A stretch of DNA of 64,000 bases from a plasmid, in sequence record NZ_AP019754.1, one strand, 5' to 3'. A program made the position numbers and the translations under genes. Below the pieces are notes generated by a model. The model had not been told where the DNA came from and ran no database searches. It saw only the letters and a program-made list of their open reading frames with translations. Positions within the stretch are counted from its first letter, which is position 1. Each line of letters opens with the position of its first letter. This document shows positions 22,896-39,387 of this stretch, in pieces.

Positions 22896-23723
22896 ATGTA
22901 TTACAAGGTATTGGGTCAGCAAAACGCTGATGCAGAAACCGTCGTGCTCTCCTCGGGTCTCGGCGGCTCCGGGGGATTCTGGCAGCCTCAGCTGGCGATG
23001 CTCTCGGCGCATTTTCGGGTGGTGGTCTATGACCAGTACGGCACCGGCGCCAGTCAGGGTAGCGTACCCGCCGGTTACCGGATGGAGGATATGGCCGATG
23101 AGCTGGCAGGCTTACTTAACGCGCTGAATATCAGCCGCTGTCATCTGGTCGGTCACGCACTGGGCGGCATTATGGGTCTGCATCTTGCCCTGCGTTATCC
23201 CGCGCTGCTGCAAAGTCTGGTGGTAATTAATGGCTGGACAGTCCTTAACAGCCAGACGCGCCGCTGCTTCGACGTCCGTCGGAACCTGCTGCTTAACAGC
23301 GGCGTAGATGCCTACGTGCAGGCGCAGCCGCTGTTTCTGTACCCGGGTGACTGGCTTTCTGAACATGAAGCTTTCCTGCAGGAAGAGCGCCAGCATCAGG
23401 TGGCGAACTTTCAGGGGATGGAAAACCTGCTGCATCGCCTGCAGGCGCTGATGGACTCCGATCTGACCACCTCGCTCAAAGGCGTCATCGCGCCGACCCT
23501 GGCGTTGAGCGCTAAAGATGATTTGCTGGTGCCCTGGTCCTGTTCAGCCGATCTCGCCTCGCGCCTTCCCCATGGCGAGCACCTGCAAATGGGCTACGGC
23601 GGACATGCCATGAGCGTAACGGACCCCGATACGTTTAACCCGATTTTACTGGACTGGCTGCAGCGGCAGGCTTCGCATCCATCCGGAACACCGTCTGATT
23701 TCATACCTGTGGAGATGCCATGA
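22896..23723 (+). CDS. rutD: Alpha/beta-hydrolase aminoacrylate hydrolase
   Basis: 275 aa with a HALGG nucleophile-elbow variant. Confidence 0.85.
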
Positions 23724-24310
23724 CCGAAGCATTAACCGCCAGCGCGCTGGCCACGTTGTTCACCGAAGCCCGCACCCATAACGGCTGGCTGAATAAACCG
23801 GTAACAGGCGAACAACTGAAAACGATTTACGAACTGGCGCGCATGGGGCCGACCTCGGCGAACTGCAGCCCGGTGCGCATCGTATTTATTCAGAGCCAGG
23901 AAGCGAAACAACAACTGGCGCCGGCACTTTCCAGTGGCAATCTGAAGAAAACGATGACCGCTCCGGTGACGGCGATTATTGCCTGGGATCCGGAATTCTA
24001 TGAGCTGCTGCCTGAACTGTTTCCGTCCGGCGATGCCCGTTCATGGTTCACCTCCAGCCCACAGCTGGCACAGGATACCGCGTTCCGCAACAGCAGTTTA
24101 CAGGCTGCGTATCTGATTATGGCCTGTCGCGCGATCGGCCTGGATACCGGACCGATGTCCGGTTTCGACAATGCCAAAGTTGATGAAACCTTTCTGGCGC
24201 AGGAAGGCTGGAAATCGAATTTTCTGATTAACATTGGTTACGGCGACAGCAGCAAAGTCTATCCGCGCGCACCGCGCCTGGACTTTGACCGCGCCTGTCG
24301 CGTGCTGTAA
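23720..24310 (+). CDS. rutE: Nitroreductase-like malonic semialdehyde reductase
   Basis: 196 aa, overlaps the rutD stop. Confidence 0.85.
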
Positions 24311-24322
24311 GCATCACCGATC

Positions 24323-24895
24323 ATGACTGAGGACACGAGCATGCAATCAACCCTGAACGCCACACTGCCCGCGACCGACATGCCCCTTGCTGAAAAAGAG
24401 GCTGCCGTTGAGAAACAGGAATACCGCAATGCCATGGCGCGCCTCGGCTCTGCCGTCAACATCATCACCACTGACGGCCCCGGCGGTCGGGCAGGTTTCA
24501 CCGCCTCTGCTGTGTGCAGCGTCACCGATACGCCACCGACACTGCTGGTGTGCCTGAACCGTTCTGCGTCGGTACATCCGGCGTTTATACAAAATCAGGT
24601 GCTGTGCGTAAACACGCTGGCCGACAGCCACGAATCACTTTCTAATTTATTCGGCGGAAAAACGCCGATGGAACAACGCTTCGACGCCGCCGAATGGACA
24701 GATCTCGCCACCGGCTCCCCGATCCTCACTAACGCGCTGGTGTCATTTGACTGCAAGGTCACGCAGATCACCCGGGTCGGTACCCACGATATTATGTTTT
24801 GTGAAGTTGTTGCACTCCGTTGCAACGATGACTGCCACGGACTGGCGTATTTCGACCGACGCTATCATCCGCTGATGCGTCAGATAGCCTGTTAA
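24323..24895 (+). CDS. rutF: Flavin reductase (the true start may be an internal Met)
   Basis: [37 protein letters not shown] matches E. coli RutF. There is a ~20-aa N-terminal extension relative to E. coli. Confidence 0.85.
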
Positions 24896-24928
24896 CTCAA
24901 TCCGCATTCAACTTAGTAAGGATCGTAC

Positions 24929-26275
24929 ATGGCACATTCCTGGTTTCCGCAATGGCGTAAAAGAGAAGGTAATCTGGATGGCGCGGTGATCGCGCCGGAT
25001 GAACGGCTACCGTTTGGCGCGACGGTGATCATGGGACTGCAACACACGGTGGCGATGTTTGGTGCCACGGTACTCATGCCATTGCTGATGGGGTTTGACG
25101 CCAATATGGCGATCCTGATGTCGGGCATCGGCACGCTGCTGTTCTTCCTGGTCGTAGGCGGGCGCGTGCCGAGTTATCTCGGTTCCAGTGCTGCATTTGT
25201 CGGGTTAGTGATTGCCGTGACCGGCTACAGCGGCCACGGCACGAACCCGAATATCGGCGTCGCGCTGGGCGGGATTATCGCCTGTGGCCTGATTTACATG
25301 CTGATCGGTTTTGTCGTCATGGCGGTCGGCACGCGCTGGATTGAGCGCCTGATGCCGCCGGTGGTGACCGGCGCGGTAGTGATGGCGATTGGACTCAATC
25401 TGGCGCCGATTGCCATAAACAGCGTATCCGCTTCATCGTTTGACAGCTGGATGGCGGTGATGACGGTGCTGTGTATCGGATCGGTGGCGGTGTTTACACG
25501 CGGTCTGGTACAGCGACTGTTACTGTTGCTGGGTCTGGTGGCGGCGTACCTGATTTATATGGCGATCACCAACGGCCTCGGGCTGGGCACGCCGGTGAAT
25601 TTCAGCGCCGTGGCGCAGGCGCCCTGGTTCGGCGTGCCCACCGTCACTACGCCGGTATTCAGCACGCACGCTATGCTGATGATTGCGCCGGTGGCGGTGA
25701 TCCTGGTTGCGGAAAACCTTGGCCATATTAAAGCCGTGGCGGGGATGACCGGTAAAAATCTCGATCCCTACATGGGCCGCGCCTTTATCGGGGATGGCCT
25801 GGCGACCTTGCTTTCGGCTTCGGCGGGCGGCACCGGCGTGACAACCTATGCCGAAAATATCGGCGTCATGGCCGTCACTAAAATTTACTCCACGCTGATT
25901 TTTGTCGCCGCCGCAATCATGGCCATTGTGTTGGGTTTTTCGCCTAAATTTGGTGCCTTGATCCACACCATTCCTGGCCCGGTGCTCGGTGGAGCATCCA
26001 TCGTGGTATTTGGCTTGATTGCCGTAGCTGGCGCCCGCATTTGGGTACAAAACCACGTTGATTTGGGCCTGAATGGCAATCTCATCATGGTGGCAGTTAC
26101 GCTGGTACTGGGCGCGGGCAACTTCACCCTGAGCCTGGGCGGCTTCAGCATGGGCGGCATCGGCACCGCGACCTTTGGGGCGATTTTACTCAATGCTTTC
26201 CTGAGCCGCAGCAAAATGGCAAAGACGCCGGCTGAGATTGAGGCAGCCACAGAAGCGGCGCTGAGAGAGCCGTAA
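24929..26275 (+). CDS. rutG: NCS2-family pyrimidine permease
   Basis: 448 aa, polytopic membrane protein, last gene of the operon. Confidence 0.85.
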   Translation: MAHSWFPQWRKREGNLDGAVIAPDERLPFGATVIMGLQHTVAMFGATVLMPLLMGFDANMAILMSGIGTLLFFLVVGGRVPSYLGSSAAFVGLVIAVTGYSGHGTNPNIGVALGGIIACGLIYMLIGFVVMAVGTRWIERLMPPVVTGAVVMAIGLNLAPIAINSVSASSFDSWMAVMTVLCIGSVAVFTRGLVQRLLLLLGLVAAYLIYMAITNGLGLGTPVNFSAVAQAPWFGVPTVTTPVFSTHAMLMIAPVAVILVAENLGHIKAVAGMTGKNLDPYMGRAFIGDGLATLLSASAGGTGVTTYAENIGVMAVTKIYSTLIFVAAAIMAIVLGFSPKFGALIHTIPGPVLGGASIVVFGLIAVAGARIWVQNHVDLGLNGNLIMVAVTLVLGAGNFTLSLGGFSMGGIGTATFGAILLNAFLSRSKMAKTPAEIEAATEAALREP

Positions 26276-26315
26276 CCTTTTATTGCTTCGTCTGTCGTCA
26301 GTGGGTGTTAAGGGT

Positions 26316-26353
26316 GCCTGGTGATCGTTTCACAACACTAACCAGGCATTTTT
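26316..26353 (+). terminator. Terminator-like hairpin followed by a T-run downstream of rutG
   Basis: gcctggt…accaggc stem followed by ttttt. Confidence 0.35.
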
Positions 26354-26551
26354 CACCGCCTTTTTGCGCCTGACATATTATCTTTTCCTATGCATTCCCC
26401 CGCAAACTGGGCTGATTTTCGCCCTGATCCCTGAATTAACGTGGGTGCCATAACCTTTTCATCTGACTATAGCCTGCGGTTATATCCTCCAACTAAACAA
26501 GCATTCGTCACCTTTTGAAGCGCATGAAATAGTGGGTTCAGAAACTTACCT

Positions 26552-27580
26552 TTGTCTGAAACGAGAAATATCATGCTAATTCCACAACCCTATTTACTTT
26601 TTCTTGGCGATGTCACCGATCCACTCGCGGCGAAAACGGCGCGAGGTATTCATATCTGGCGGCCGGAGCAGTGCGTGGGCGAAATTAAACTCCCGGGCTG
26701 TACTGTCAGCCTGGGTCTGGATGAACTTGACATCATCAGCGCCAAAGCACGCGGCGCGAAAACGCTGGTGCTCGGTACTGCTAACGCAGGGGGCTATCTG
26801 CCAGAACACTGGCTGGATACGGTGAAAAGTGCCATCAAAGCAGGCATGAACGTTGCCAGCGGACTGCATCACCGTCTGGTGGACGAGCCCGAACTGGTGA
26901 CGCTTGCCCAGACGTTTGGTGTTGAGCTTTTTGACTTACGTCATATGCGTCCGACGCTGAGCGTTGGCAGTGGTAAGAAGCGGACAGGCAAACGGATACT
27001 GACTGTTGGCACTGACTGCTCCGTGGGCAAGATGTACACCTCACTGGCGCTGGAAGCGGCGATGCGTGAGCGCGGAATGAAAGCGGATTTTCGCGCTACA
27101 GGTCAGACAGGGATTCTGGTGGCGGGTGAAGGGATTGCCGTGGATGCGGTCATCGCGGATTTTATTGCAGGTGCGGCCGAAGCGCTATCACCCGCGAATG
27201 ATGAGGATCACTGGGACATCGTTGAAGGGCAGGGGTCACTGTTCCACCCCTCTTACGCAGGCGTCAGTATGGGGCTCATGCACGGTGCGCAACCTCACTG
27301 GTTGGTGATGTGCCATGAAATGGGGCGCCCCCATATGCGCCATTTACCTCATCAGCCAATGGTCAGCCTGAAAGACTGCGTTGAAGCCAATCTGCGCGCT
27401 GCCCAGGTGACCAGCGCGTCCGTCCAGCTGGCGGGGTTTGCCATTAACACCTCAAATTACACGGAAGACGAAGCGCGCGCCTATTGCGCCGAAGTCAGCG
27501 CAGAGTTTGGTTTACCGGCTACGGATCCTGTGCGTTTTGGCATCGACGAGATCGCCGCACTGCTTCAGGCGCGGGGGTGA
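26552..27580 (+). CDS. DUF1611-family protein (DgcN-like putative D-glutamate N-acetyltransferase)
   Basis: 342 aa. It has the DUF1611 architecture, with an N-terminal Rossmann-like region (LLFLGD…AKTARG) and a C-terminal P-loop-like segment (ILTVGTDCSVGKMYTSLALE). Confidence 0.6.
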   Translation: MSETRNIMLIPQPYLLFLGDVTDPLAAKTARGIHIWRPEQCVGEIKLPGCTVSLGLDELDIISAKARGAKTLVLGTANAGGYLPEHWLDTVKSAIKAGMNVASGLHHRLVDEPELVTLAQTFGVELFDLRHMRPTLSVGSGKKRTGKRILTVGTDCSVGKMYTSLALEAAMRERGMKADFRATGQTGILVAGEGIAVDAVIADFIAGAAEALSPANDEDHWDIVEGQGSLFHPSYAGVSMGLMHGAQPHWLVMCHEMGRPHMRHLPHQPMVSLKDCVEANLRAAQVTSASVQLAGFAINTSNYTEDEARAYCAEVSAEFGLPATDPVRFGIDEIAALLQARG

Positions 27581-27581
27581 A

Positions 27582-28547
27582 ATGAGACAGTTGCAGATTG
27601 ACGTGGTGGAATTGCCGCTGGCCCGGCCCTTTGCTATTTCGCGCGGTACGCGTACCGCCGTCACGGTTATCCGGGTCACGCTGGAGCAAAACGGTTTCAT
27701 TGGGCGAGGCGAATGTACGCCCACGGCGCGCTACGATGAAACGCCAGACAGCGTTCAGGCCGAGCTTGAGGCAGTGCGCGCTGACGTTGAAGCCGGCCTG
27801 AGCCGTCATGATCTGCAACACCGCTTACCCGCCGGTTCCGCGCGCAACGTGCTGGACTGTGCGCTGTGGCGACTGGATGCCGCCCGCGCCAGTCAAACGC
27901 TATGGCAGAAAAGTGCACGTCCTCAGCCACGCTCGGTGATCACGGCGGAAACCCTCAGCCTCGATACGCTGGAAAATATGGCGCTGGCGGCGGCGGATGC
28001 CGTATCGCGTGGCGCCATCCTGCTCAAAATTAAGCTCAATCGTGATGCAGTTCTGGAAAAGGTGGCGGCCATTCGCGCTGCGGCACCGCGCGCCACGCTG
28101 ATTATCGACGCTAATGAGGCCTGGTCGGGAATGGACCTGGAAAGCCTGCTGGCCGCACTTCAGGGCTATAACATTGCTATGGTCGAGCAACCGCTTCCCG
28201 CCGGTCAGGATCAGGACCTGCAACGTTTTCATCATCCGGTTCCCGTTTGTGCTGATGAGAGTTGCCATACGCGCGAGGATATTGCCGGACTGCGGAACCG
28301 CTACGAGATGATCAACATCAAGCTGGATAAGTGCGGTGGCCTGACGGAAGCGCTGGCGATGGTAGAAGAAGCACAAAAGCAGAATATGCGCATCATGGTC
28401 GGCTGCATGCTGGGCTCATCACTGGCGATGGAAGCCGCATTGCCGGTGGCGGTTAACGCAGAGCACGTCGATTTAGATGGCCCTATCTGGCTTGCTGCCG
28501 ACAGTTCTCCTTTTTTGACCTACTCCGAAGGCCGTATCTGGCTATAA
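27582..28547 (+). CDS. Enolase-superfamily dipeptide/N-acyl amino acid epimerase (YcjG/AEE- or DgcA-like)
   Basis: 322 aa from the ATG at 27582, 2 nt after the upstream stop. It carries the mandelate racemase/muconate lactonizing enzyme layout, with a capping domain and then the K-x-K (ILLKIKLN) and metal-ligand (IIDANEAW…MVEQP…LDKCGG) motifs. Confidence 0.7.
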   Translation: MRQLQIDVVELPLARPFAISRGTRTAVTVIRVTLEQNGFIGRGECTPTARYDETPDSVQAELEAVRADVEAGLSRHDLQHRLPAGSARNVLDCALWRLDAARASQTLWQKSARPQPRSVITAETLSLDTLENMALAAADAVSRGAILLKIKLNRDAVLEKVAAIRAAAPRATLIIDANEAWSGMDLESLLAALQGYNIAMVEQPLPAGQDQDLQRFHHPVPVCADESCHTREDIAGLRNRYEMINIKLDKCGGLTEALAMVEEAQKQNMRIMVGCMLGSSLAMEAALPVAVNAEHVDLDGPIWLAADSSPFLTYSEGRIWL

Positions 28548-28562
28548 CTCTACGAGGCGACG

Positions 28563-30428
28563 ATGACGGACACACGACTCACTTCTTCTGCCAACAGTGC
28601 CGCCGGTTCATCACCCGTGCTTGATATTCGGGATCTCAGCGTCTCATTTCGTGGGCGCAGCGGCGAGAATCAGGCACTAAAAGGCATCAGTTTTGCCATT
28701 AATCCGGGCGAAATTGTCGCCGTAGTGGGTGAGAGTGGCTCAGGGAAATCAGTCACTTCTTTGGCCGTAATGGGCTTACTGGCGAACAGCGGCCGTATCG
28801 ATCGCGGCAGCATGCAGTTTCGCGATCGTGGCGGAAAAGTACATGCGCTGGAAACACTGGATGAAAATCAGCGCCGCACGTTACGTGGTTGCGAAATGGC
28901 GATGATCTTTCAGGAGCCCATGACCTCGCTGAATCCGGTGCTGCGCGTCGATGACCAGCTCACTGAAGCGTTACGCGATCATCAACAGTGCGACAAGAAA
29001 GAAGCGCATGCGCGCGTGCGTGAATTGCTTCGACAGGTGCGTATTGCCGATGTGGATCGTGTCATGAAAAGCTATCCGCACGCACTCTCAGGCGGTATGC
29101 GCCAGCGGGTGATGATTGCGCAGGCGCTGGCCTGTGATCCGCAACTTCTGATTGCTGACGAACCTACAACGGCGCTGGATGTTACCGTGCAGGCGCGCAT
29201 TCTGCACATTCTGCGTGAGCTGCAACGCGAGAAACAAATGGCGGTGCTGTTTATCACTCACGATATGGGCGTCGTGGCTGAAATCGCCGATCGTGTCGTG
29301 GTCATGCTGCGTGGCGAAGTCGTCGAACAGGGCAGCGTCGCAGCGGTTTTTGCCGCCCCGCAGCACCCGTATACCCAGGCTTTGCTGGCGGCGGTGCCGA
29401 GACTGGGCGACATGCGCGAATATGCGTGGCCGCAACGCTTTCCGCTGCTCGGCACACAGAATACCGTCGAAAATGAACAGCATACCGCGCGCTACGACAC
29501 CGCGCCGTTGCTCGATGTGCGTGGGTTGAAAGTCTACTATCCCATCCGCAGCGGCATCTTTTCGACGCTCACGCATCATGTCCATGCGGTTGAGCAGATT
29601 GATTTCAGTCTGTGGCCAGGTGAAACCCTGGCGATCGTGGGCGAAAGCGGCTGCGGCAAATCGACGACCGGCCGTGCGCTGATGCGCCTGATCAACAGTG
29701 ACGCCGAAAGCATTCACTTCGAAGGGAAAGAAATCTCTCACCTGAAAGAGGCAGCATTCCAGCCGCTCCGCCGTGAAATTCAGATGGTGTTTCAGGATCC
29801 CTACGCCTCACTGAACCCTCGGCTTACCGTGGGTTTCACCATTGCCGAGCCCTTGCTGTTACATGGCATGGTGTCCTCACTGGAACAGGCTTCGCCACAG
29901 ATAGATGCGTTGCTGAAGAGCGTTGGTCTGCTGCCCGAGCACGCGCGTCGGTATCCACATGAATTTTCAGGTGGTCAGCGCCAGCGTATTGCCATTGCCC
30001 GCGCCATGGCCCTGAAGCCCAAAGTGATTATTGCTGATGAAGCGGTATCGGCCCTTGACGTCTCCATTCAGGCGCAGGTGGTGAACCTGATGATGGATCT
30101 GCAGCAGCAAACGGGCGTGGCGTGGATTTTCATCTCTCACGATATGGCGGTCGTCGAGCGCATTGCCAACCGTGTGGCGGTGATGTACCTCGGCCAGATT
30201 GTGGAGCTTGGGCCGCGTCAGTCGGTATTTAATCAGCCGCAACATCCTTATACCCAACGCCTGCTGGCCTCCGTGCCGGTGGCGGATCCCGAGAACCGTC
30301 AGCCCCGTATTATCGATGACAGCGAAATCCCTTCGCCGTTAAGAAAAGTGGGCGAAACGGTCACTAAACCCCGTTATCGACAGGTTGCGCCTCAGCACTG
30401 GGTCGCTGACGGCATTGCATTGCGATAA
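28563..30428 (+). CDS. Peptide ABC transporter ATP-binding protein with two fused nucleotide-binding domains (DppD/DppF-like)
   Basis: 621 aa with duplicated Walker A (GESGSGKS / GESGCGKS), two LSGG signatures and Walker B. Confidence 0.85.
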
Positions 30429-30449
30429 TTCAACGACCAGGAGATTTTT

Positions 30450-31991
30450 ATGAAAACGCTGTTTCGCCGTACTTCACTCGCCCTCGCATTGACGACGACG
30501 CTGGTCATGACTGCACAGGCACAGGATCTGCGTATTTCAATGTATGCCGATATTACGGGGCTGGATCCGCACGATACCTCAGACAATGTCAGCTATTCGG
30601 TGCAGAGTGGTATCTTTGAACGACTGTTTCAGTTCGATCCACACATGAAGCTCCAGCCCTGGCTGGCCACCGGTTATACCTCAAATGAAAATGCAACGGA
30701 GTTTACGCTGACGTTGCGCAAAGGCGTCACCTTCCAGGATGGCACACCTTTTGATGCGGAAGCCGTCAAAGCCAACCTTGATCGCCTGGCAGACCAGAAA
30801 AAAGGGCTAAAGCGTAACAGCCTGTACAAAATGATCGATAAGGTTACGGTGCTGGCACCCGATCAGGTAAAAATCGATCTTAACCAGTCGTTTGGTGCCT
30901 TTATTAACACGCTGGCACATCCTTCCGCAGTGATGTGGAGCCCGTCCATTCTCAAGCAATATCCAGACGAAGCCCAACTCCGGTTGCATCCTGTGGGTAC
31001 CGGTCCGTTTAAATTTGTTGACTGGACACCGGGCAAAGCGGTCACGCTGGCGAAGTATGACGGTTACTGGCAGCAGGGATGGCCAAAAGTCGATCATGTT
31101 ATCTTCTCACCCAGCCCGGAAGATGCAACACGCGTAGCCGCGTTGAAGTCGGGTCAGGTTGACGCAATCTGGCCATTGCCTTCGGATCTGATTGCTGCCG
31201 TGAAGCAAGACAGCAACCTCTCTGTTCAGCGCGATCCCAGCATTTATCTTTATTACATGGCGATTAATACGCAGCACAAGCCACTGGCAGATGTTCGCGT
31301 GCGTCAGGCAATCAACTATGCGATTGACCGTAATCTGTGGCTGAAGGTGGCCTTTGCTGGTTTAGGTAAACCTGCCACATCCGCCATGCCCGAAGGTGTC
31401 CAGTTTTATCAGAAACAAAACGATCCTGATTATCACTATGCGCCGGATAAAGCCAAAGCGCTGCTGAAAGCGGCGGGCTATCCGAATGGTCTGGATCTCA
31501 AACTCTGGGTTACGAATGCAACGGCCAGCGTGCGCGCCGCTCAGGTACTGAAAGCGCAGCTGGGCACGGTGGGCATTCGTGCCACGGTAACTCCGATGGA
31601 TTCCGGCACGCGCAACGCTAAGTTATGGGGCGTACAGGACCCGAAAAAGGCGGAATTTGACCTGTACTATGGTGGCTGGTCGACGTCCACAGGCGATGCC
31701 GACTGGGCGCTGCGTCCGCTGTTTGCCACTGAATCCTGGGTACCCACCTCCTACAATGTCTCCTATTTCAGCAATCCTGATGTAGACAAAGCCATTGCCG
31801 CCGGGCTGGCAACGGCCGATCCGGCAAAGCGTGGTATCGCCTATGCGCAAGCGCAGAAACTGATATGGCAGGATGCACCGGTGGCATTCCTTGGTACGCC
31901 AGACAATCTCGTTGGCAAACGCCGCACCCTGAATGGTGTTTCCATGCTGCCTGATGGCAATTTGCTCTTCACTCAGGCGTCGTTTAAATAA
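30450..31991 (+). CDS. Family-5 (DppA/OppA-type) periplasmic peptide-binding protein
   Basis: 513 aa with a signal peptide (MKTLFRRTSLALALTTTLVMTAQA). Confidence 0.85.
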   Translation: MKTLFRRTSLALALTTTLVMTAQAQDLRISMYADITGLDPHDTSDNVSYSVQSGIFERLFQFDPHMKLQPWLATGYTSNENATEFTLTLRKGVTFQDGTPFDAEAVKANLDRLADQKKGLKRNSLYKMIDKVTVLAPDQVKIDLNQSFGAFINTLAHPSAVMWSPSILKQYPDEAQLRLHPVGTGPFKFVDWTPGKAVTLAKYDGYWQQGWPKVDHVIFSPSPEDATRVAALKSGQVDAIWPLPSDLIAAVKQDSNLSVQRDPSIYLYYMAINTQHKPLADVRVRQAINYAIDRNLWLKVAFAGLGKPATSAMPEGVQFYQKQNDPDYHYAPDKAKALLKAAGYPNGLDLKLWVTNATASVRAAQVLKAQLGTVGIRATVTPMDSGTRNAKLWGVQDPKKAEFDLYYGGWSTSTGDADWALRPLFATESWVPTSYNVSYFSNPDVDKAIAAGLATADPAKRGIAYAQAQKLIWQDAPVAFLGTPDNLVGKRRTLNGVSMLPDGNLLFTQASFK

Positions 31992-32074
31992 GACGCGGAT
32001 TGCTCTCACGTCCCTTTCCCTCGCAGGGCAAAAGGACGTGAGGGCACCCGTCACAGTGCATTTCAAGGAATGGC

Positions 32075-33007
32075 ATGTTTGCATACATCCTTCGCCGATT
32101 ACTGGAGATGATCCCGGTTTTGCTGGTGGTCTCGCTGCTGGTTTTCGGTTTTATCAAGCTGCTGCCGGGCGACCCGGCGCGCATCTATGCTGGACCGGAT
32201 GCGCCCATTGAGGCGGTTGAAGCGGCGCGTCAGCACCTTGGGCTTAACGATTCGCTGCCACAGCAGTACGTCCACTGGATCGATAGCCTGTTACACGGCG
32301 ATCTTGGCACCACCTACCGCACCCAGCAACCGGTGCTGCAGGTGATTAAACAGGGCTTCATGCCAACGCTTTGGCTCGCCTTAGCGGGGTTTGCCTGGTC
32401 AGTGATTCTCGGCCTCGTACTTGGCGTTCTTGCGGCACTGAAGCGAGGAAAATGGCAAGACTGGACGCTGATGAGCATGGCGGTGGGCGGTATCTCAATG
32501 CCTGCTTTCTGGCTGGGTCTGTTGCTGATCCAGTTCGTCGCGATGCCTTTTGGGCTGTTCTCAGTCAGCGGTTTCAACAAAGCCAGTGATATTGTCCTGC
32601 CCGCCATCACGCTGGGTTCGTCAGTGGCGGCAGTGATGGCTCGGTTTACCCGCTCAGCCTTCCTGGAGGTGGCGCAGGAAGATTACGTGCGGACCGCCAA
32701 AGCCAAAGGACTGCGTAACCGCCTCGTGACGTGGAAACATGTGATGCGTAATGCACTCATTCCGGTGATTACCATGCTCGGTTTGCAGTTCGGTTTTCTG
32801 CTGGGCGGCTCCATCGTCGTGGAGAGCGTCTTCAACTGGCCGGGGTTAGGCTGGTTGTTGATTGAGTCGATAAAAGCGCAGGATCAGCCGGTTATTCAGG
32901 CGCTGGTGATGCTGTTCGTGTTTGAATTTATTGTCATTAATCTGCTGGTCGATCTGCTTTACGCGGTCGTCAATCCGGCGATTCGTCTGCGACAGGAGCC
33001 GAGATGA
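32075..33007 (+). CDS. Peptide ABC transporter permease (DppB-like)
   Basis: 310 aa with the binding-protein-dependent permease EAA-like loop. Confidence 0.85.
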
Positions 33008-33888
33008 GTATTCAATCGCTGACTGAAAACCCGCCTCAGGTCATCCGTTCGCCGTGGCGCGATTTCCTGCATGCCTTTGTGCGTAATCCTCTGGCGCTGG
33101 TCTCAGGCGGATTTGTACTGTTGTTGATCGTGGTGGCGATCTTTGCGCCCTGGCTGGCCCCCTGGGATCCGATGGCACCAGACTGGATGGCGTTGTCGTC
33201 ACCGCCCAGCGCGGCACACTGGATGGGAACCGACGAGCTGGGGCGTGATCTGCTCAGTCGCATTATCTATGGGGCGCGTATCTCGCTCTATGTCGGCGTG
33301 CTGTCCGTAACGCTCGGCATGATTGTCGGTGTGGTGTTGGGTTTACTGGCAGGCTATTACGGCGGCTGGGTCGATATGCTGATCATGCGCGGCGCCGACG
33401 TGTTATTCGCTTTTCCCGGCATGTTACTGGCCATTGCGGTTGTCGCGCTACTTGGAACCGGCCTGAACAATGTGATCATCGCGGTCGCGGTGTTCAGCGT
33501 ACCCGTTTTTGCCCGTATTGTGCGCGCCTCGACGCTGTCATTGAGACAGGCCGCCTATGTGGAAGCCGTTCGCTGTGCCGGTGCACCCGATCGCATCATT
33601 ATCCTGCGACATATTTTGCCCGGTACGCTTTCCAGCGTGATTGTCTACTTCACTATGCGCATCGGCACCAGTATTCTCACCGCAGCGGGCTTAAGCTTTA
33701 TTGGCCTGGGGCCGGAGCCGGATGTGCCTGAATGGGGTAATATTCTGGCGATGAGCCGGAGCATGATGATGGCTGGCGCATGGCACATGAGCGTGTTTCC
33801 GGGGCTGGCGATTTTTATCACGGTGCTGGCGTTCAACCTGCTCGGCGACGCGCTGCGCGATACGCTCGACCCGAAACTGAAGAGCTGA
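33004..33888 (+). CDS. Peptide ABC transporter permease (DppC-like)
   Basis: 294 aa, overlaps the upstream permease stop. Confidence 0.85.
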
Positions 33889-33890
33889 CC

Positions 33891-34934
33891 ATGGATTTTC
33901 AACAATTGCAGCGCGATCTGCTGCTAAACCACTGGCGTCACGCGCGTACGTTGGGACAGCCGCGCGGCGCTTGCGGGCCCGGCAATCGAATCAGCGATGT
34001 TGCCGGCGTGCGCGTCGGACATTACACGCTGAATGATGGAGAAAGGCAGACTGGCGTCACCGCTATCGTTCCGCCGGGCGACAATGTGTTTCTCACGCCG
34101 CTGCCGTGTGGCGCGGAAGTGCTCAATGGCTTTGCAAAACCGGTCGGGCTGGTACAGGTCGAGGAGCTTGGCGTGTTACAGACGCCGATTCTGCTCAGCA
34201 ACACGCTGGCGGTGGGCACGCTGTTTACCACGCTGGTCCGGGATGCCATCCGTCGTAATCCGGAGCTGGGGCGGACCTTGCCCACGGTAAATCCGCTGGC
34301 ACTGGAGTGCAACGATGGCTGGCTTAATGATATCCAGTCGTTGTCCATCAGCGAGGCGATGGCGCAGGCGGCATTGCGCACGGCCGCCGCCGATTTTGCA
34401 CGCGGCAGCGTCGGGGCAGGGCGCGGGATGAGCTGTTTTAGCCTGAAGGGCGGGATCGGCACGGCCTCTCGTGTTATTCCCTCGCTCAACGCCACGCTCG
34501 GGGTGCTGGTGCTGGCAAATTTTGGTTCGCTAAGCGCATTAACGCTTGACGGTGTGCGACTCGGCGACATGATAGCGCCGCTGCTGGCCGGGCAACCGCC
34601 GCAGCGTGATGCCGGCTCTGTCATCATCGTTATGGCCACGGATGCGCCACTGGATGCGCGTCAGTTGAAACGGATTGCCCGGCGTGCCGGCGCCGGCCTT
34701 GGACGGCTGGGCAGCTACTGGGGCCACGGTTCAGGCGATATTGCCGTGGCGTTCTCAACGCAACCCCTGCCGCAACCACCTCAGGATGACCAGCTGGAGC
34801 CGCTGCTTGCCGCCGCGGCAGATGCAACCGAACAGGCTGTTCTGGATGCCTTGTTGAGCGCGGAGGCCGTCACCGGCTTTCGTGGTCACCATCGGCCCTC
34901 ACTGACTCAGATTCTGGACAAATTAACCGCATGA
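33891..34934 (+). CDS. P1/S58-family aminopeptidase (DmpA-like L-aminopeptidase/D-Ala-esterase/amidase)
   Basis: 348 aa from the ATG at 33891. It has the Ntn-hydrolase DmpA/ArgJ-like pattern, with an autoproteolysis-site region (…GSVGAGRG…) and a C-terminal GHGSGDIAVAFST. Confidence 0.65.
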   Translation: MDFQQLQRDLLLNHWRHARTLGQPRGACGPGNRISDVAGVRVGHYTLNDGERQTGVTAIVPPGDNVFLTPLPCGAEVLNGFAKPVGLVQVEELGVLQTPILLSNTLAVGTLFTTLVRDAIRRNPELGRTLPTVNPLALECNDGWLNDIQSLSISEAMAQAALRTAAADFARGSVGAGRGMSCFSLKGGIGTASRVIPSLNATLGVLVLANFGSLSALTLDGVRLGDMIAPLLAGQPPQRDAGSVIIVMATDAPLDARQLKRIARRAGAGLGRLGSYWGHGSGDIAVAFSTQPLPQPPQDDQLEPLLAAAADATEQAVLDALLSAEAVTGFRGHHRPSLTQILDKLTA

Positions 34935-35755
34935 AAATTTTTATCTCTGCCGATATTGAAGGTATCGCGGGCGTCATGCGCCCGGAGCACTGCACACCAG
35001 GCAACCCGGAATATCAGATGGCCCGGGGGCTGATGGAACAGGAAGTCAATGCCGCGATTGAGGGGGCGTTCGCGGGGGGCGCAACGGAGGTGGTGGTCGC
35101 CGACAGCCATGCGCAAATGACCAATTTACGTGCGGAAAATATTGATCCACGCGCCCGACTGGTGCAGGGTAAACCTCGCGGTCTGTCTATGGTTGAAGGG
35201 ATCGAGCAGCAGACGTTCGACGGATTATTTCTGGTGGGCTATCACAGCGCAGCAGGCGAACCTGGCGTACTGGCGCACACCATTAACGGCCGCGCATTCT
35301 GGCGTATCCATATCAATGGCCTTGTGATGGGGGAAACCGACATTTATGCCGCCGCTGCCGCTGAACAGGGTACGCCTCTGTTGTTGGTCACCGGCGACGA
35401 TCAGCTCCAGAGCTGGATAGCAGAATATTATCCCACGGTTGATTACGTCTGTGTAAAACGCGCCATTTCCCACACCTGCGCGGAATCCATCAGCCCCAAA
35501 GCGGCGCAGCGTGCAATATGCGCCGCGGCAAGCGCCGCACTGCAGCATTCACATCAGGCAAGCACGACTCGCCTGGCCGCGCCTTATCGCATGCAGCTCC
35601 AGGCCAGCAAACCCGTGCTGGCCGATCTGTTTAGCCTGATTCCTGGTGTCACGCGCATTGATGCGGTTACCGTGGAGTATCAGGCGGAGCGGATGGGTAC
35701 GTTGATCGGCTTGCTCAGTGCCTTTTCCTATCTGGCGAGTACCCAATCGTCATAA
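34931..35755 (+). CDS. M55-family D-aminopeptidase (Bacillus DppA-like)
   Basis: 274 aa with an N-terminal MKIFISADIEGIAGV identical in style to D-Ala-D-Ala aminopeptidase DppA. It overlaps the upstream stop. Confidence 0.7.
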   Translation: MKIFISADIEGIAGVMRPEHCTPGNPEYQMARGLMEQEVNAAIEGAFAGGATEVVVADSHAQMTNLRAENIDPRARLVQGKPRGLSMVEGIEQQTFDGLFLVGYHSAAGEPGVLAHTINGRAFWRIHINGLVMGETDIYAAAAAEQGTPLLLVTGDDQLQSWIAEYYPTVDYVCVKRAISHTCAESISPKAAQRAICAAASAALQHSHQASTTRLAAPYRMQLQASKPVLADLFSLIPGVTRIDAVTVEYQAERMGTLIGLLSAFSYLASTQSS

Positions 35756-36229
35756 GAGGATGTGCGTATCGGCAGCGGCAACGTTAGCGCGCCTGTTCTG
35801 CTGCCCTGAAACACCGCTGCCATACAGGATTACCCATCGGCCAACCGCGCGGCTGGCCATCCAGCGATGTCGCTTCCGTTGCACCACGATGGGGCGAACG
35901 CCTGTCCGGACAGCGTTTCCATTCTGTCCGGCCCGGAGGTGCAAAAAACAGCGCGGCAGAGCCCATTTCATCTCCTCTCTTCAGACGCAGTCATCGACTC
36001 ATACCGATAGCCAGATGAAGGTCGGCGACTCAGCCACCGTCAGCTTTACGGTACAAATTTTGCAAGAGAGCAGGGATTGCCATGTAATAACCCAGGGTTT
36101 GGGCTCTGCCAGAAAGCGGTTGCAGGCTTTCCCGTAAAGTTGCGGTGTTGGCAGTCTCATGCAGGCACTGCTGTAAAAGGGTGGTGACAACGGCCTGCGG
36201 TCAGGTGAATCCAGTTAAGGTGAATAATA

Positions 36230-37147
36230 ATGCGGCTCCGTCACATAGAGGTATTTCAGGCCATCGTACAGACCGGTAGCATCAGCGCTGCAGCGCGCTT
36301 GCTGAATGTGTCCCAGCCGAATATCAGCCGCGTGCTGAATCATGCGGAACAGCAATTGGGTTTTGCACTGTTTGAGCGACGGATACAGGGAATGAGCGTC
36401 ACGGCGGAAGGACGACGCCTGCTGCCCGAAGTAGAAGATCTTTATCAACGTTTGCAATCCATTACTCAACTCACCGAACAACTTCGACGCGGCGAAGGGC
36501 AGATAGTCCGCGTGGGTGCGGCTCACGCGTTCGGTCAAATGGTGCTGGCACCCGCATTGGTCACCTGGCGACAACAGGTGGCCTCGGTCAGTGTCGAACT
36601 GGTCACGGAGCACTTCAAGACTTTGTGCCAAATGATTCTGGAAAATCAGCTTGATTTCGCCCTGGTGTTTGGTCAACAGGTGGATGCAGACCTTTTGGCT
36701 GAACCGCTGTTCCAGTCTTCCATGGTGGCGCTGCTGCCGCTCAATCATCCCCAGCATGAACCCGTTTCGCTGGAGTGGTTATGCAGCAATAATCTGCTGA
36801 TGATGCAGACCCAGGATCCGCTTGGGCGCGTATTACACCGCGCGCTGCGCGATAAAAAGCTGAATCCCGCTGTGTCACTGTCGATTAAAACCTATTCGGT
36901 GATTGCGGATATGGTCCTGGCAGGCGGCGGCGTGGGCGTCGTGGATCTGTTCACGGCATGCCGCTATGCCGACCAGCTAAAATTGCTCCCCGTCGCGCAA
37001 CCGTTGCCGTTTGAAGTGATGCTGATCAGCCGTCGTGATAAACCCCAGTCACAGTCCACCCTGCAACTTAAGCAGGTAATACGTAACAGGCTGTGGGAGA
37101 TTGCCCGACAGTGCGAAGCACAGTTTCTGGTTGAGAAAGCAAGCTAA
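36230..37147 (+). CDS. LysR-family transcriptional regulator
   Basis: The N-terminal HTH (RLRHIEVFQAIVQTGSISAAARLLNVSQPNISRVL) is followed by a substrate-binding domain. Confidence 0.85.
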   Translation: MRLRHIEVFQAIVQTGSISAAARLLNVSQPNISRVLNHAEQQLGFALFERRIQGMSVTAEGRRLLPEVEDLYQRLQSITQLTEQLRRGEGQIVRVGAAHAFGQMVLAPALVTWRQQVASVSVELVTEHFKTLCQMILENQLDFALVFGQQVDADLLAEPLFQSSMVALLPLNHPQHEPVSLEWLCSNNLLMMQTQDPLGRVLHRALRDKKLNPAVSLSIKTYSVIADMVLAGGGVGVVDLFTACRYADQLKLLPVAQPLPFEVMLISRRDKPQSQSTLQLKQVIRNRLWEIARQCEAQFLVEKAS

Positions 37148-37329
37148 AAACGGCTTCTGGTGAATCTGGTGGTACACCTGCTATCGGCAAAGGTTTGCGT
37201 CACTGTTTTGCCTTTTGAAACCTGTTCTGGTCGTCCCGGTGCAGTCAGGGATACTTATTTCTTTTAAAGACATCCGGCGCTTTCTGTCCCCGTCAGTTGT
37301 TCCGGCAGGGACTGAGAAGGGCACACACT

Positions 37330-39387
37330 TTACTTCTGAATCCAGCAAGGGCCCGGCCTGCCAAAGAGGTATCCCTGAAGTAACGGACACTCATTCGTCT
37401 TTAGCCACTCCGCCTGGGCAGGCGTTTCCACGCCCTCTGCGGTCACTTCAACCTGGAGTTGACGGCAGAGTGAAAGAACGGAGCTGACGATGGCTGCCGC
37501 TCCGGAGTCCAGGTGCAGATCGTTGATAAACGACCTGTCTATTTTTATCCTGCTGAACAGTCCGGAACTGAGGTGGTTCAGTGAAGAAAAGCCCGTACCA
37601 AAATCATCCAGTACGATATGAATTCCGGTATCCCTGAACCTGCGAATCATTTCGTAACTGCCTTCGGGGTTGTCGAACAGCGCCGACTCGGTGATTTCGA
37701 GCTCCAGCCGGTTTGGGTGCAGCCCACTCTCAATAAGAACCGTTTTCACCCTGTTGGCCAGCTGTGGATCACGAAACTGACGGGGCGAGATATTAACTGC
37801 CACGCGTTCGTGCCCTGACCACTCCGCCATATCGTTGCAGGCTCGCTCAAGCGCGAATGCGCCAATATCATGAATAAGCCCGGTTTTTTCAGCGAGCGGG
37901 ATGAACACGTCAGGCGAAACATTTCCCCTTACAGGATGATTCCAGCGCAGCAGGGCTTCATAGGAAACCACTTCCTCACTGATGCTGCAGACGACGGGCT
38001 GATAAAAAATCTGCAGCTCACCGTTCTCGAGCGCGCCACGCAGGTCATTTTCCAGGCTAAAGCGCTCTGCCGCCGAACTGGCTAGCTCATCGGTAAAAAT
38101 TACCCAGCCTTTGCGCCCGGCTGACTTGGCAGCGTAGAGGGCGATATCGGCTGCCGATAACATGCTTTCGGCATCTCGCGCATAGCCCGGAAAGAGGCAA
38201 ACCCCGAAGCTGCAACCCGAGGTGACTTTCCGCCCTTTCAGCATGAAGGGCTCCTTCAGGACCATCGTCAGGCGCGATGCTGTTTCGCTTGCGTCTTCTG
38301 CCGAGCTAATGCCGGGCAAAACGGCAACGAACTCGTCACCGCCCGTGCGGGCCAGAATGTCGCCCGGGCGCAGGACTGACAGCAGCCGTGCTGAAACCTC
38401 AATGAGCAAGGTATCGCCCGCCGCGTGACCCAGAACGTCGTTGACGCTTTTAAACCGGTCGATGTCAGACACCATGACCGCAAAGGGTTCGTCACCGTCC
38501 AGAAGCGTTTCAAGCTCAGGCATCAGGCCACGGCGGTTGAGAAGCCCTGTCAGCGGATCATGAAGGGCCAGATGGTTCGCTCTGACCGCAGCCTGATACT
38601 CCGCCGTGACGTCCAGTATGGTATACAGGAGATAGTCATCTCCGCCGCCCGAATTCAGCCTTTCGGCGGAAATCCGTAATGAAAATTCCGGCTCATTATC
38701 GCCCGAAGAAACCGTTTCACTAAAGCCCTGGTCGGGAAGGAGGTCAAATGCCTGCCTGAACACAGCCGCGAGATTGTCTGGCAGGCCCGCAGGCAGGGCG
38801 GTTCGGGTATTCCCACTGCGTACCCGTTCTTGCAGACAGGACAAATTCATGGCCGTCGGGTTCGCGCGTATGATGTCCCCCGATGCAACGTCACACAGGA
38901 TGAGCGCGCAAGGCGTGTGGCTGAATACGGCGTCGAGCACCTTATTTGTGTCTGATAACTCGGTTTCCCTTTTCAGGATAACTTTTTGAGCGATGCGGAG
39001 CGCCGCCCTTTCCTGATAGCCTTGTGAAACGTCACGCACGATTTTGATAAAGGCCGCATTATCTTCATCGGACGGATTGAGAAATTCTATTTCAACTGAT
39101 GCCCGAAACGCGCTGCCGTTTTTGCGCAGGCGCCAGCCCTCTCCTGTGAACTTGCCGCGCTCACGGGCCTCCCTCAGGTTGGCCTCAGGGATATTCCTGG
39201 CCTGCTCATCTTCATCATAAAAAACCGAAATATGCTGCCCTCGGATATCGCGGCTATCCCATCCCTTGATCTCACGGCATCCAAGATTCCAGCTCATCAC
39301 TTCTCCGGTGGAAGACAGCAGATATATCGCACAAAGAGACGTTCTGGCCACGGCGGCCCCCAGTTGGTCATTGGTTACGGATTTCAT
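37330..39387 (-). CDS. PAS–GGDEF–EAL c-di-GMP signalling protein
   Basis: 685 aa with an N-terminal PAS domain, a GGDEF site (RTGGDEFVAV) and an EAL domain (YEALLRW, ELEITES, DDFGTG). Confidence 0.85.
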   Translation of the reverse strand: MKSVTNDQLGAAVARTSLCAIYLLSSTGEVMSWNLGCREIKGWDSRDIRGQHISVFYDEDEQARNIPEANLREARERGKFTGEGWRLRKNGSAFRASVEIEFLNPSDEDNAAFIKIVRDVSQGYQERAALRIAQKVILKRETELSDTNKVLDAVFSHTPCALILCDVASGDIIRANPTAMNLSCLQERVRSGNTRTALPAGLPDNLAAVFRQAFDLLPDQGFSETVSSGDNEPEFSLRISAERLNSGGGDDYLLYTILDVTAEYQAAVRANHLALHDPLTGLLNRRGLMPELETLLDGDEPFAVMVSDIDRFKSVNDVLGHAAGDTLLIEVSARLLSVLRPGDILARTGGDEFVAVLPGISSAEDASETASRLTMVLKEPFMLKGRKVTSGCSFGVCLFPGYARDAESMLSAADIALYAAKSAGRKGWVIFTDELASSAAERFSLENDLRGALENGELQIFYQPVVCSISEEVVSYEALLRWNHPVRGNVSPDVFIPLAEKTGLIHDIGAFALERACNDMAEWSGHERVAVNISPRQFRDPQLANRVKTVLIESGLHPNRLELEITESALFDNPEGSYEMIRRFRDTGIHIVLDDFGTGFSSLNHLSSGLFSRIKIDRSFINDLHLDSGAAAIVSSVLSLCRQLQVEVTAEGVETPAQAEWLKTNECPLLQGYLFGRPGPCWIQK

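Follow-up and report, generated by a model that had tools for sequence, protein, structure and literature searches.

Gene content and layout of the cluster

The subject of this study is a cluster of nine genes at 26.5-37.2 kb of a 64,000-nucleotide (nt) stretch of plasmid DNA (record NZ_AP019754.1), which we call the window. The cluster joins dgcN and dgcA, the genes of a D-glutamate pathway, to an ATP-binding cassette (ABC) importer of the peptide type, two aminopeptidase genes of the S58 and M55 families and the gene of a LysR-type regulator (Table 1). All nine genes lie on the + strand and each gave a strong family match, which confirmed the families and the common orientation listed in an initial annotation made from the sequence alone. 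This region is 100% identical to the LPP-1-type megaplasmid of Pantoea ananatis R100 (NZ_CP014208.1), while other P. ananatis megaplasmids are 99% identical. In the RefSeq annotation of NZ_CP014208.1 the genes are named dgcN, dgcA, ABC transporter, 'glutathione ABC transporter substrate-binding protein', P1 family peptidase, M55 family metallopeptidase and LysR. The starts of the dgcN, dgcA and S58 open reading frames (ORFs) were corrected on the basis of this annotation and the lengths of homologues, which for dgcN moved the start from 26552 to 26573; Table 1 lists the corrected extents.

Across the first eight genes the spacing is 1, 15, 21, 83, -4, 2 and -4 nt. Scans for terminators and for promoter consensus sequences, inside the operon and after the M55 gene, returned nothing above the expectation from shuffled sequence. 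Because the gaps are short and no internal terminator exceeded chance, the first eight genes appear to form one tight operon, and it is from this spacing that we infer their co-transcription. The M55 gene is separated from the LysR gene by a gap of 474 nt (35756-36229). An Rfam scan of positions 26000-37500 gave no match, and base composition did not mark the cluster as foreign against the neighbouring DNA.

We read the cluster as an operon under DgcR-type control that would import small peptides containing D-glutamate (D-Glu), hydrolyse them and convert the released D-Glu to N-acetyl-L-Glu, and we put the probability of this reading at roughly 0.5. The operon would then extend the DgcN/DgcA pathway from free to peptide-bound D-Glu, perhaps to other D-amino acids too, and possibly to iso-linked residues. 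Support for this reading comes from the predicted active-site residues, which are intact in DgcA, S58 and M55, and from a probable signal peptide that is found on the binding protein only and not on the peptidases. The D-amino-acid theme that the initial annotation had proposed is upheld, as are its family assignments, and the genes form one unit.

Table 1. Features of the cluster in the window (first eleven rows) and importer-peptidase modules at other loci (last five rows; the four from Azospirillum to L091 are without dgcNA); aa, amino acids; SBP, substrate-binding protein; NBD, nucleotide-binding domain.
Feature	Location	Strand	Description
dgcN	26573..27580	+	DUF1611 protein, putative D-glutamate N-acetyltransferase, 335 aa
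dgcA	27582..28547	+	enolase-superfamily N-acyl-D-Glu racemase/epimerase, 321 aa
Fused double-NBD ABC ATPase, peptide (GsiA-like) type	28563..30428	+	two ABC_tran and two oligo_HPY domains
Periplasmic family-5 SBP, GsiB-like	30450..31991	+	SBP_bac_5, E = 3e-96
ABC permease, GsiC-like	32075..33007	+	BPD_transp_1_N and BPD_transp_1
ABC permease, GsiD-like	33004..33888	+	OppC_N and BPD_transp_1
S58/P1 (DmpA-like) Ntn-type aminopeptidase, cytoplasmic	33891..34934	+	Peptidase_S58 PF03576, 342.6 bits, E = 3e-102
M55 (DppA-like) D-aminopeptidase, cytoplasmic	34931..35755	+	Peptidase_M55 PF04951, 321.5 bits, E = 5e-96
LysR-type regulator, proposed DgcR-like activator	36230..37147	+	HTH_1 and LysR_substrate
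Palindromic LysR-type (T-N11-A) box TATAGCCTGCGGTTATA	26468..26484		104 nt upstream of dgcN ATG; candidate site of the DgcR-like regulator
Conserved promoter-proximal blocks AAACAAGCATTCGTCAC, CATGAAATAGT	26495..26533	+	invariant columns in the same four enterobacterial upstream regions as the box
Azospirillum lipoferum module			RpiR, D-amino-acid aminotransferase, ABC, P1, M55, isoaspartyl peptidase
Agrobacterium vitis module			RpiR, ABC, M55, isoaspartyl peptidase
Roseovarius module			IaaA, S58 and ABC on one strand; LysR-M55 divergent
Klebsiella pneumoniae plasmid module L091	JBQTKM010000003.1, 4699-11878		Gsi-like ABC, M55, PALP enzyme; no S58, no dgcNA
Metagenome contig module L143	OCZT010001096.1, 2621-11952		SBP_bac_5, two permeases, two ATPases, 287-aa unassigned ORF, MR_MLE epimerase, M55, M20 peptidase

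DgcN and DgcA

DgcN carries the Pfam domains DUF1611_N and DUF1611 (E = 8e-78) and matched the DgcN equivalog model of NCBIfam (NF041892) over its full length, scoring 525 bits where the cut-off is 480. Among solved structures the nearest is 7XRJ (374 bits), deposited as a 'putative NAD-dependent epimerase/dehydratase', which itself scored 339 bits against the DgcN of a Pseudoalteromonas (locus L038, 10001-10993). The assumption that 7XRJ is the Pseudoalteromonas DgcN was dropped, its identity to a Pseudoalteromonas DgcN being ~52% as estimated from the printed alignment.

The dgcA gene starts 1 nt past the dgcN stop. Its product has MR_MLE_N/C domains and scored 435.6 bits with the DgcA model NF042940, the cut-off of which is 400. 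The initial annotation had already pointed out the tight coupling of the DUF1611 and epimerase genes, and both products exceed the Dgc equivalog cut-offs. The same dgcA product also exceeded the cut-off of NF011708, the model of the L-Ala-D/L-Glu epimerase YcjG (371 against 343 bits); its identity is 48% to E. coli YcjG (1JPD) and 45% to Pseudoalteromonas DgcA. In the printed alignment with 1JPD the catalytic Lys-x-Lys motif (KIK), the second Lys-containing segment (NIKLDK) and the DxD motif (DLD), which in these epimerases serves the ammonium group of the dipeptide, all match. In a neighbour-joining tree the DgcAs of clusters composed like that of the window formed one clade adjoining the DgcAs of Vibrionaceae, and E. 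coli YcjG fell within the same gammaproteobacterial group, nested in the DgcA family. The DgcA and YcjG annotations may denote one enzyme family under two names. Since N-acetyl-D-Glu and L-Ala-D-Glu are both N-acyl-D-Glu compounds, a preference for one over the other cannot be read from the sequence; the tight coupling of dgcN and dgcA favours the acetyl route, and epimerisation of dipeptides by the window DgcA, which would fit a peptide importer, is possible.

The kinship with YcjG, including the retained DLD motif and the shared clade, lends weight to a reading of the cluster as a system strictly for murein-peptide recycling, in which stem peptides would be imported, DgcA would act mainly as an L-Ala-D/L-Glu epimerase in the manner of YcjG or YkfB, M55 would remove D-Ala and S58 L-Ala, and DgcN would be auxiliary. 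The translational coupling of dgcN to the epimerase gene, and the adjacency of the two genes in 64 of 73 loci (see below), point instead to an acetylation-racemisation pair. A comparable mixture of likeness and difference was seen with the ycjG-mpaA pair for murein tripeptide recycling in E. coli. The Pantoea epimerase resembles YcjG and passes its hidden Markov model, whereas the cluster has no MpaA amidase and does have a DUF1611 partner, its own importer and aminopeptidases.

A Gsi-related importer

The best NCBIfam matches of the four transporter proteins were GsiA, GsiB, GsiC and GsiD, and the architecture is the same as in the Gsi system, with a fused two-NBD ATPase, a family-5 SBP and two permeases. 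None of the four reached the respective cut-off: the ATPase scored 827 bits (cut-off 1077), the SBP 460 bits (594), the GsiC-like permease 399 bits (463) and the GsiD-like permease 412 bits (484). The SBP, the N-terminus of which (MKTLFRRTSLALALTTTLVMTAQA) resembles a signal peptide, shares 41% identity with the closest solved binding protein, YliB/GsiB of E. coli (1UQW). Because of this distance to GsiB, and because all four proteins stay under the Gsi equivalog cut-offs, the importer is predicted to be a Gsi paralogue and not the glutathione importer itself.

One could nevertheless read the transporter as a paralogue of Gsi that takes up glutathione or gamma-glutamyl peptides and that, together with ordinary peptidases, was joined to dgcNA by chance. 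The four best matches, the closest solved SBP and the RefSeq name of the SBP would all suit this reading. The sub-threshold scores and the 41% identity to GsiB speak against it, as do the preservation of the fusion with dgcNA over deep divergence and the recurrence of the importer with D-amino-acid or isoaspartyl enzymes elsewhere, and we consider it the least probable of the explanations weighed here. Compared with iaaA-gsiABCD of E. coli, the Pantoea operon shares the transporter subfamily and the fused-ATPase architecture, and its sister clusters in Agarivorans and Halotalea keep an IaaA-like gene; the window itself differs in having no iaaA, in the transporter scores below the Gsi cut-offs and in the addition of dgcNA, S58 and M55. 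The ddpXABCDF operon of E. coli likewise combines a D-peptide ABC importer with a co-transcribed cleaving hydrolase, but uses a VanX-type M15 peptidase in place of M55 and S58 and has no stereo-inversion enzymes. A Pantoea permease matched the Ddp model only weakly, with 251 bits against a cut-off of 434.

A different substrate for the ABC system would be free D-Glu or a derivative such as N-acyl-D-Glu or D-Gln, with the two peptidases acting as amidases on such derivatives. Family-5 SBPs also bind non-peptide ligands such as opines and nickel chelates, and the window SBP has AgaA and NikA as solved relatives; in addition, DmpA-type enzymes are generally known as amidases or esterases for D-Ala derivatives. 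Two aminopeptidase families next to a Gsi/Dpp-type importer are, however, explained most simply by peptides, and free amino-acid transport is without known precedent in this subfamily. Uptake of such monomers is very unlikely in our view.

Two cytoplasmic aminopeptidases

The best solved relatives of the S58 protein are 2DRH, DmpA (1B65) and BapA. Its Gly-Ser self-cleavage site is present, with AG/S aligned to the DmpA site, which we take to be G249/S250 in DmpA numbering. The M55 protein could be aligned over its full length to B. subtilis DppA (1HI9), and D8, E10, H60, H104 and E133, presumably the zinc-ligand positions of DppA, are retained; with the DppA equivalog model NF058634 it scored 176 bits, short of the cut-off of 430. 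Signal peptides were found on neither of the two peptidases.

The M55 protein brings the murein reading back into view, since M55 together with a peptide ABC importer and an epimerase recalls the dpp-ykf region of B. subtilis, and the same combination recurs in the metagenome module L143. Moreover, at two loci of Alphaproteobacteria an M55 gene has a YkuD L,D-transpeptidase gene as its neighbour. In B. subtilis, dppABCDE (dciA) and ykfABCD place M55, a peptide ABC importer and an enolase-superfamily Glu-epimerising enzyme in one region devoted to D-peptide scavenging. That region differs from the Pantoea cluster in gene order and transporter subfamily, and in the distance of the Pantoea M55 from the DppA cut-off; it is without DUF1611 and S58 genes, and it includes an LD-carboxypeptidase and a gamma-D-Glu-diamino-acid endopeptidase, both of which are absent from the Pantoea cluster. 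Among the nine genes and their flanks we found no MpaA-like amidase for the bond between gamma-D-Glu and meso-diaminopimelate (mDAP), no LD-carboxypeptidase and no gene of the mpaA, ykfA or ykfC type. A further point against strict murein recycling is that the operator of the cluster is common to minimal clusters without peptide genes, as described in the next section. We consider strict murein recycling unlikely, although it is the strongest of the competing explanations. Of the initially proposed system for D-Glu- and D-Ala-containing peptides, the general idea is supported, whereas a specific role in the use of murein stem peptides is not; the cluster encodes neither a gamma-D-Glu-mDAP amidase nor an LD-carboxypeptidase.

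A proposed upstream operator and the LysR regulator

The initial annotation had suggested that the LysR protein acts upstream of dgcN, and a conserved candidate box for a LysR-type transcriptional regulator at 26468-26484 backs this suggestion. The box has the form TATAGCC-N3-GGTTATA and is centred ~97 nt before the dgcN start codon; the pattern ATA[AG]C-N5-G[CT]TAT has one exact occurrence in the 64-kb window. The exact box columns are invariant in the aligned upstream regions of four enterobacterial clusters, those of Pantoea, the Klebsiella-type island, Rouxiella and Rahnella; in Lonsdalea the box has diverged. Of the 83 regions upstream of dgcN that were scanned, 24 had the pattern, compared with ~0.2 expected from the background motif rate in the remainder of the same loci, and 21 of these 24 occurrences were situated 70-125 nt before the start. 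The regions with the pattern include those of canonical LysR-dgcN-dgcA clusters of Pseudoalteromonas, Vibrio, Photobacterium, Pseudidiomarina, Cognaticolwellia and sphingomonads. Because the motif is shared at the same distance, the whole Pantoea operon appears to stand behind an operator typical of dgc clusters.

Between the box and dgcN, the sequences TTCGTC (-35) and AATAGT (-10) in the conserved blocks at 26495-26533 could constitute a weak, activator-dependent promoter; the promoter consensus scan did not call this pair. The 9-mer that makes up the core of the dgcN operator, GCCTGCGGT, occurs again at ~36194-36202, just upstream of the lysR start, and is kept in the Klebsiella-type island. 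This second copy could be an autoregulatory half-site, with ~0.5 occurrences expected per window by chance.

The window LysR is 95% identical to that of the Klebsiella-type island, 62-64% to the LysRs of Rouxiella, Rahnella and Agarivorans, the latter encoded downstream of its cluster, and 47% to the LysR of Halotalea, encoded upstream. With 62% identity to the Agarivorans protein and 47% to the Halotalea protein, the data are consistent with one regulator lineage that has shifted position between clusters. Identity to the canonical upstream LysRs is 28-38%.

The DgcN/DgcA pathway for D-glutamate, with the dgcR-dgcN-dgcA cluster of Pseudoalteromonas sp. CF6-2, was reportedly described by Yu and colleagues in ISME J in 2023. 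The Pantoea operon resembles the Dgc cluster in that DgcN and DgcA are above the equivalog cut-offs, adjacent and coupled, in the associated LysR gene and in the same palindromic box ~100 nt before dgcN. The canonical cluster comprises 3-4 genes with the LysR gene upstream and, in Pseudoalteromonas, an NhaC-type carrier, whereas the Pantoea operon has six extra genes after dgcA, for the peptide ABC importer, S58 and M55, and its LysR gene has moved downstream. As the canonical Pseudoalteromonas cluster has the NhaC-type carrier instead, the peptide importer and the peptidases would replace a carrier for the free amino acid. The dgcR-dgcN-dgcA work is cited in two further papers (PMC12363236, PMC10845958).

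Conservation and spread of the block

A survey anchored on DgcN, with one genome per species, yielded 80 loci, 73 of which had enough downstream DNA for the next gene to be assessed; dgcA directly follows dgcN in 64 of these 73. Across the DgcN family the ABC system together with S58 and M55 is the exception, being present in four of the 80 species-level loci, namely those of Lonsdalea, two Rouxiella and Rahnella. These four are among the five closest DgcN relatives (68-83% identity), the fifth being the Ewingella locus L004, which does not have the set. At the remaining loci (DgcN 52-61%) the cluster is minimal, and in many of them a LysR gene precedes it by ~1 kb in the same orientation; the dgc cluster of Pseudoalteromonas additionally has the NhaC-type carrier mentioned above. 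Relative to their counterparts in the canonical clusters, the window DgcN is 52-61% and the window DgcA 38-50% identical.

In a second survey, anchored on M55, the proteins at least 60% identical belonged to the taxa that had also given the best DgcN matches, and in at least eleven cases the longest contig bearing the protein was of equal length in the DgcN and M55 match lists. Agarivorans and Halotalea have the order dgcN-dgcA-ABC-S58-M55 followed by an Asparaginase_2 (isoaspartyl peptidase) gene, with the LysR gene downstream in Agarivorans and upstream in Halotalea. The whole block was found with identical spacing in all eight metagenome loci in which M55 was at least 89% identical and enough upstream sequence was available. 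Protein identities to the window were 89-98% for the Klebsiella-type island, 63-87% for Lonsdalea, Rouxiella and Rahnella, 62-82% for Agarivorans and 47-73% for Halotalea. Across these sister genomes the nine proteins diverge in parallel and keep their order, which is the expectation from inheritance as a unit. The eight-gene unit and its LysR gene are inherited together in Enterobacterales and in a few further members of the Gammaproteobacteria. The initial annotation had made its proposal depend on the DUF1611 and epimerase genes being conserved along with the transporter and peptidase genes in related genomes, and this co-conservation was found, in the same order and with parallel divergence. 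In the Lonsdalea locus (L002) a LysR gene was not detected.

The nine-gene block also occurs, at ~88% nucleotide identity, on plasmids of Klebsiella and Enterobacter, including several conjugative ones. Of 5426 complete E. coli genomes, 5 carry it in an island by mrkJ that is flanked by IS1, ISKpn26 and Tn3. On the chromosome of E. coli AH04 (L001; NZ_CP081706.1, 2452934-2475764) the flanks of this island consist of IS1, ISKpn26, a Tn3 fragment and IS4321, and the island looks like a segment of a Klebsiella plasmid that was integrated in the chromosome. In Ewingella sp. 20WA0182 (L004) a LysR gene of the cluster type (63% identical) directly follows dgcN, while dgcA, transporter and peptidase genes were not detected at this locus, which looks like an internal deletion variant.

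Importer-peptidase modules without dgcNA

The same transporter subfamily occurs with S58 and/or M55 but without dgcNA in several other modules (Table 1, Azospirillum to L091), the ATPase of which is 55-57%, the permeases 54-67% and the SBP 43-44% identical to the window proteins. An Asparaginase_2 gene directly follows the M55 gene in four metagenome loci, and several metagenome loci have S58 upstream and IaaA downstream of M55. More distant M55 genes adjoin peptide ABC systems in ~15 further loci. As in L143, M55 adjoins an enolase-superfamily epimerase and a peptide ABC system in L160, and in L141 it is near DUF1611 and MR_MLE genes. We count L143, L160 and L141, as independent recurrences of M55 with partners of the epimerase type, in favour of the D-Glu peptide reading. 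The K. pneumoniae plasmid module L091 is bracketed by two gene pairs for a TacA-like antitoxin and a GNAT-type acetyltransferase, with an IS1 transposase gene near. The two alphaproteobacterial loci L088 and L093 each have a lone M55 gene immediately next to one for a YkuD L,D-transpeptidase, and L088 has an M15 peptidase gene as well, which is a cell-wall context for M55.

The isoaspartyl peptidase genes raise the question whether the cluster serves the salvage of damaged peptides (isoaspartyl, D-Asp, D-Glu), with the Gsi-like importer, S58 and M55 as a general module for abnormal peptides and dgcNA as one exchangeable finisher. An Asparaginase_2 gene directly after M55 was seen in Agarivorans, in Halotalea, in the Azospirillum and A. 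vitis modules, which have no dgcNA, and in the four metagenome loci, and in the same cluster in Roseovarius; the iaaA-gsiABCD genes of E. coli show the same pairing. The versions of Pantoea, Klebsiella, Rouxiella and Rahnella, however, are without an isoaspartyl peptidase gene, and tblastn with three IaaA proteins detected no remnant in the 474-nt gap between M55 and LysR. A salvage role of this kind overlaps the D-Glu peptide reading rather than excluding it, and as a separate explanation we find it quite unlikely.

The idea of a decayed isoaspartyl-peptidase gene in the M55-LysR gap was dropped, there being no tblastn match and no convincing ORF. No ORF of at least 30 aa in the gap resembled a gene, and a 139-aa ORF (35718-36137), the only one scanned, had no match in Pfam or NCBIfam. 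The gap is conserved in part with the Klebsiella-type island. The RefSeq numbering omits one locus tag at this position (AW734_RS21870), possibly that of an annotated pseudogene.

Because the same set recurs with varying partner enzymes, the importer and the aminopeptidases appear to be a core, used repeatedly, for handling peptides that contain non-standard residues, and the partner enzyme would process the unusual residue set free. In the window this partner is DgcN/DgcA, which points to D-Glu as the residue released. More tentatively, these loci may make up an undescribed modular family of operons for the salvage of non-standard peptides, with a Gsi-type importer and S58 and/or M55 as the constant part and DgcN/DgcA, a D-amino-acid aminotransferase, a PALP enzyme or an isoaspartyl peptidase as the exchangeable part; we regard such a family as possible, though doubtful. 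If it is real, Gsi-type importers would in nature take up peptides with D-, beta- or gamma-linkages and not glutathione as such. In that event, the Dgc pathway of plant-associated and clinical Enterobacterales, including that on conjugative Klebsiella plasmids, would serve feeding on peptides derived from the peptidoglycan or poly-gamma-glutamate of neighbours.

Proposed pathway and its weighing

In the pathway that we favour, the GsiB-like SBP would capture small peptides with D- or other non-standard residues, and the GsiACD-like ABC system would import them. The cytoplasmic S58 aminopeptidase and the zinc-dependent M55 aminopeptidase would then remove N-terminal residues and free D-Glu, to judge by the chemistry of their families. 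DgcN would N-acetylate D-Glu and DgcA would turn N-acetyl-D-Glu into N-acetyl-L-Glu, the activities expected of members of these equivalog families, after which N-acetyl-L-Glu would be deacetylated or fed into arginine biosynthesis. DgcA may also epimerise X-D-Glu dipeptides directly, like its relative YcjG. The downstream LysR would be a DgcR-type activator that binds the TATAGCC-N3-GGTTATA box, so that in response to an inducer the transporter and peptidase genes would be switched on together with dgcNA.

Several observations weigh against this pathway. The LysR gene lies downstream instead of in the canonical upstream position, and its product is just 28-38% identical to the canonical LysRs. 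Co-transcription of the eight genes is read from spacing only. The closest characterised relative of the SBP is the glutathione binder GsiB (41% identity), and DgcA passes the YcjG model as well as the DgcA model and is about equally distant from both (48% against 45%), so that either substrate may be the preferred one. Finally, the S58 and M55 families are not confined to D-substrates, and the cluster is without a peptidase for the gamma-D-Glu-mDAP bond.

D-glutamate is part of every bacterial cell wall, and its release into the environment is mostly in peptide-bound form. To our knowledge, DgcN/DgcA is the only dedicated catabolic route for D-Glu that has been described, and its definition came from marine bacteria using free D-Glu. 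If an operon links the DgcN/DgcA route with peptide import and with aminopeptidases of the D-type, it would show how plant-associated and enteric bacteria harvest D-Glu peptides, and could account for the carriage of the block on conjugative Klebsiella and Enterobacter plasmids. It also offers a class of ligands that can be tested on a Gsi-like transporter and on two peptidase families of which little has been characterised, and the conserved operator is a direct handle on regulation. Every protein family, the core D-Glu chemistry and the RefSeq gene names are known already, and the advance is incremental. Our literature searches returned no description of dgcNA joined to a peptide importer and S58/M55 under a dgc operator, of the inheritance of this block or its spread on plasmids, or of the modular pattern; the view of the initial annotation that the arrangement had not been described before is in agreement with this outcome.

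Neighbouring genes

The pyrimidine-utilisation genes rutD, rutE-like, rutF and rutG lie directly upstream of the cluster (22896-26275 in the window). The rut genes adjoin the cluster, and two nitrogen-scavenging loci would therefore stand side by side. The paper on the LPP-1 plasmids places rutRABCDEFG on group II Pantoea plasmids and does not mention the dgc-peptide cluster. Downstream of the cluster, a PAS-GGDEF-EAL gene is encoded on the opposite strand.

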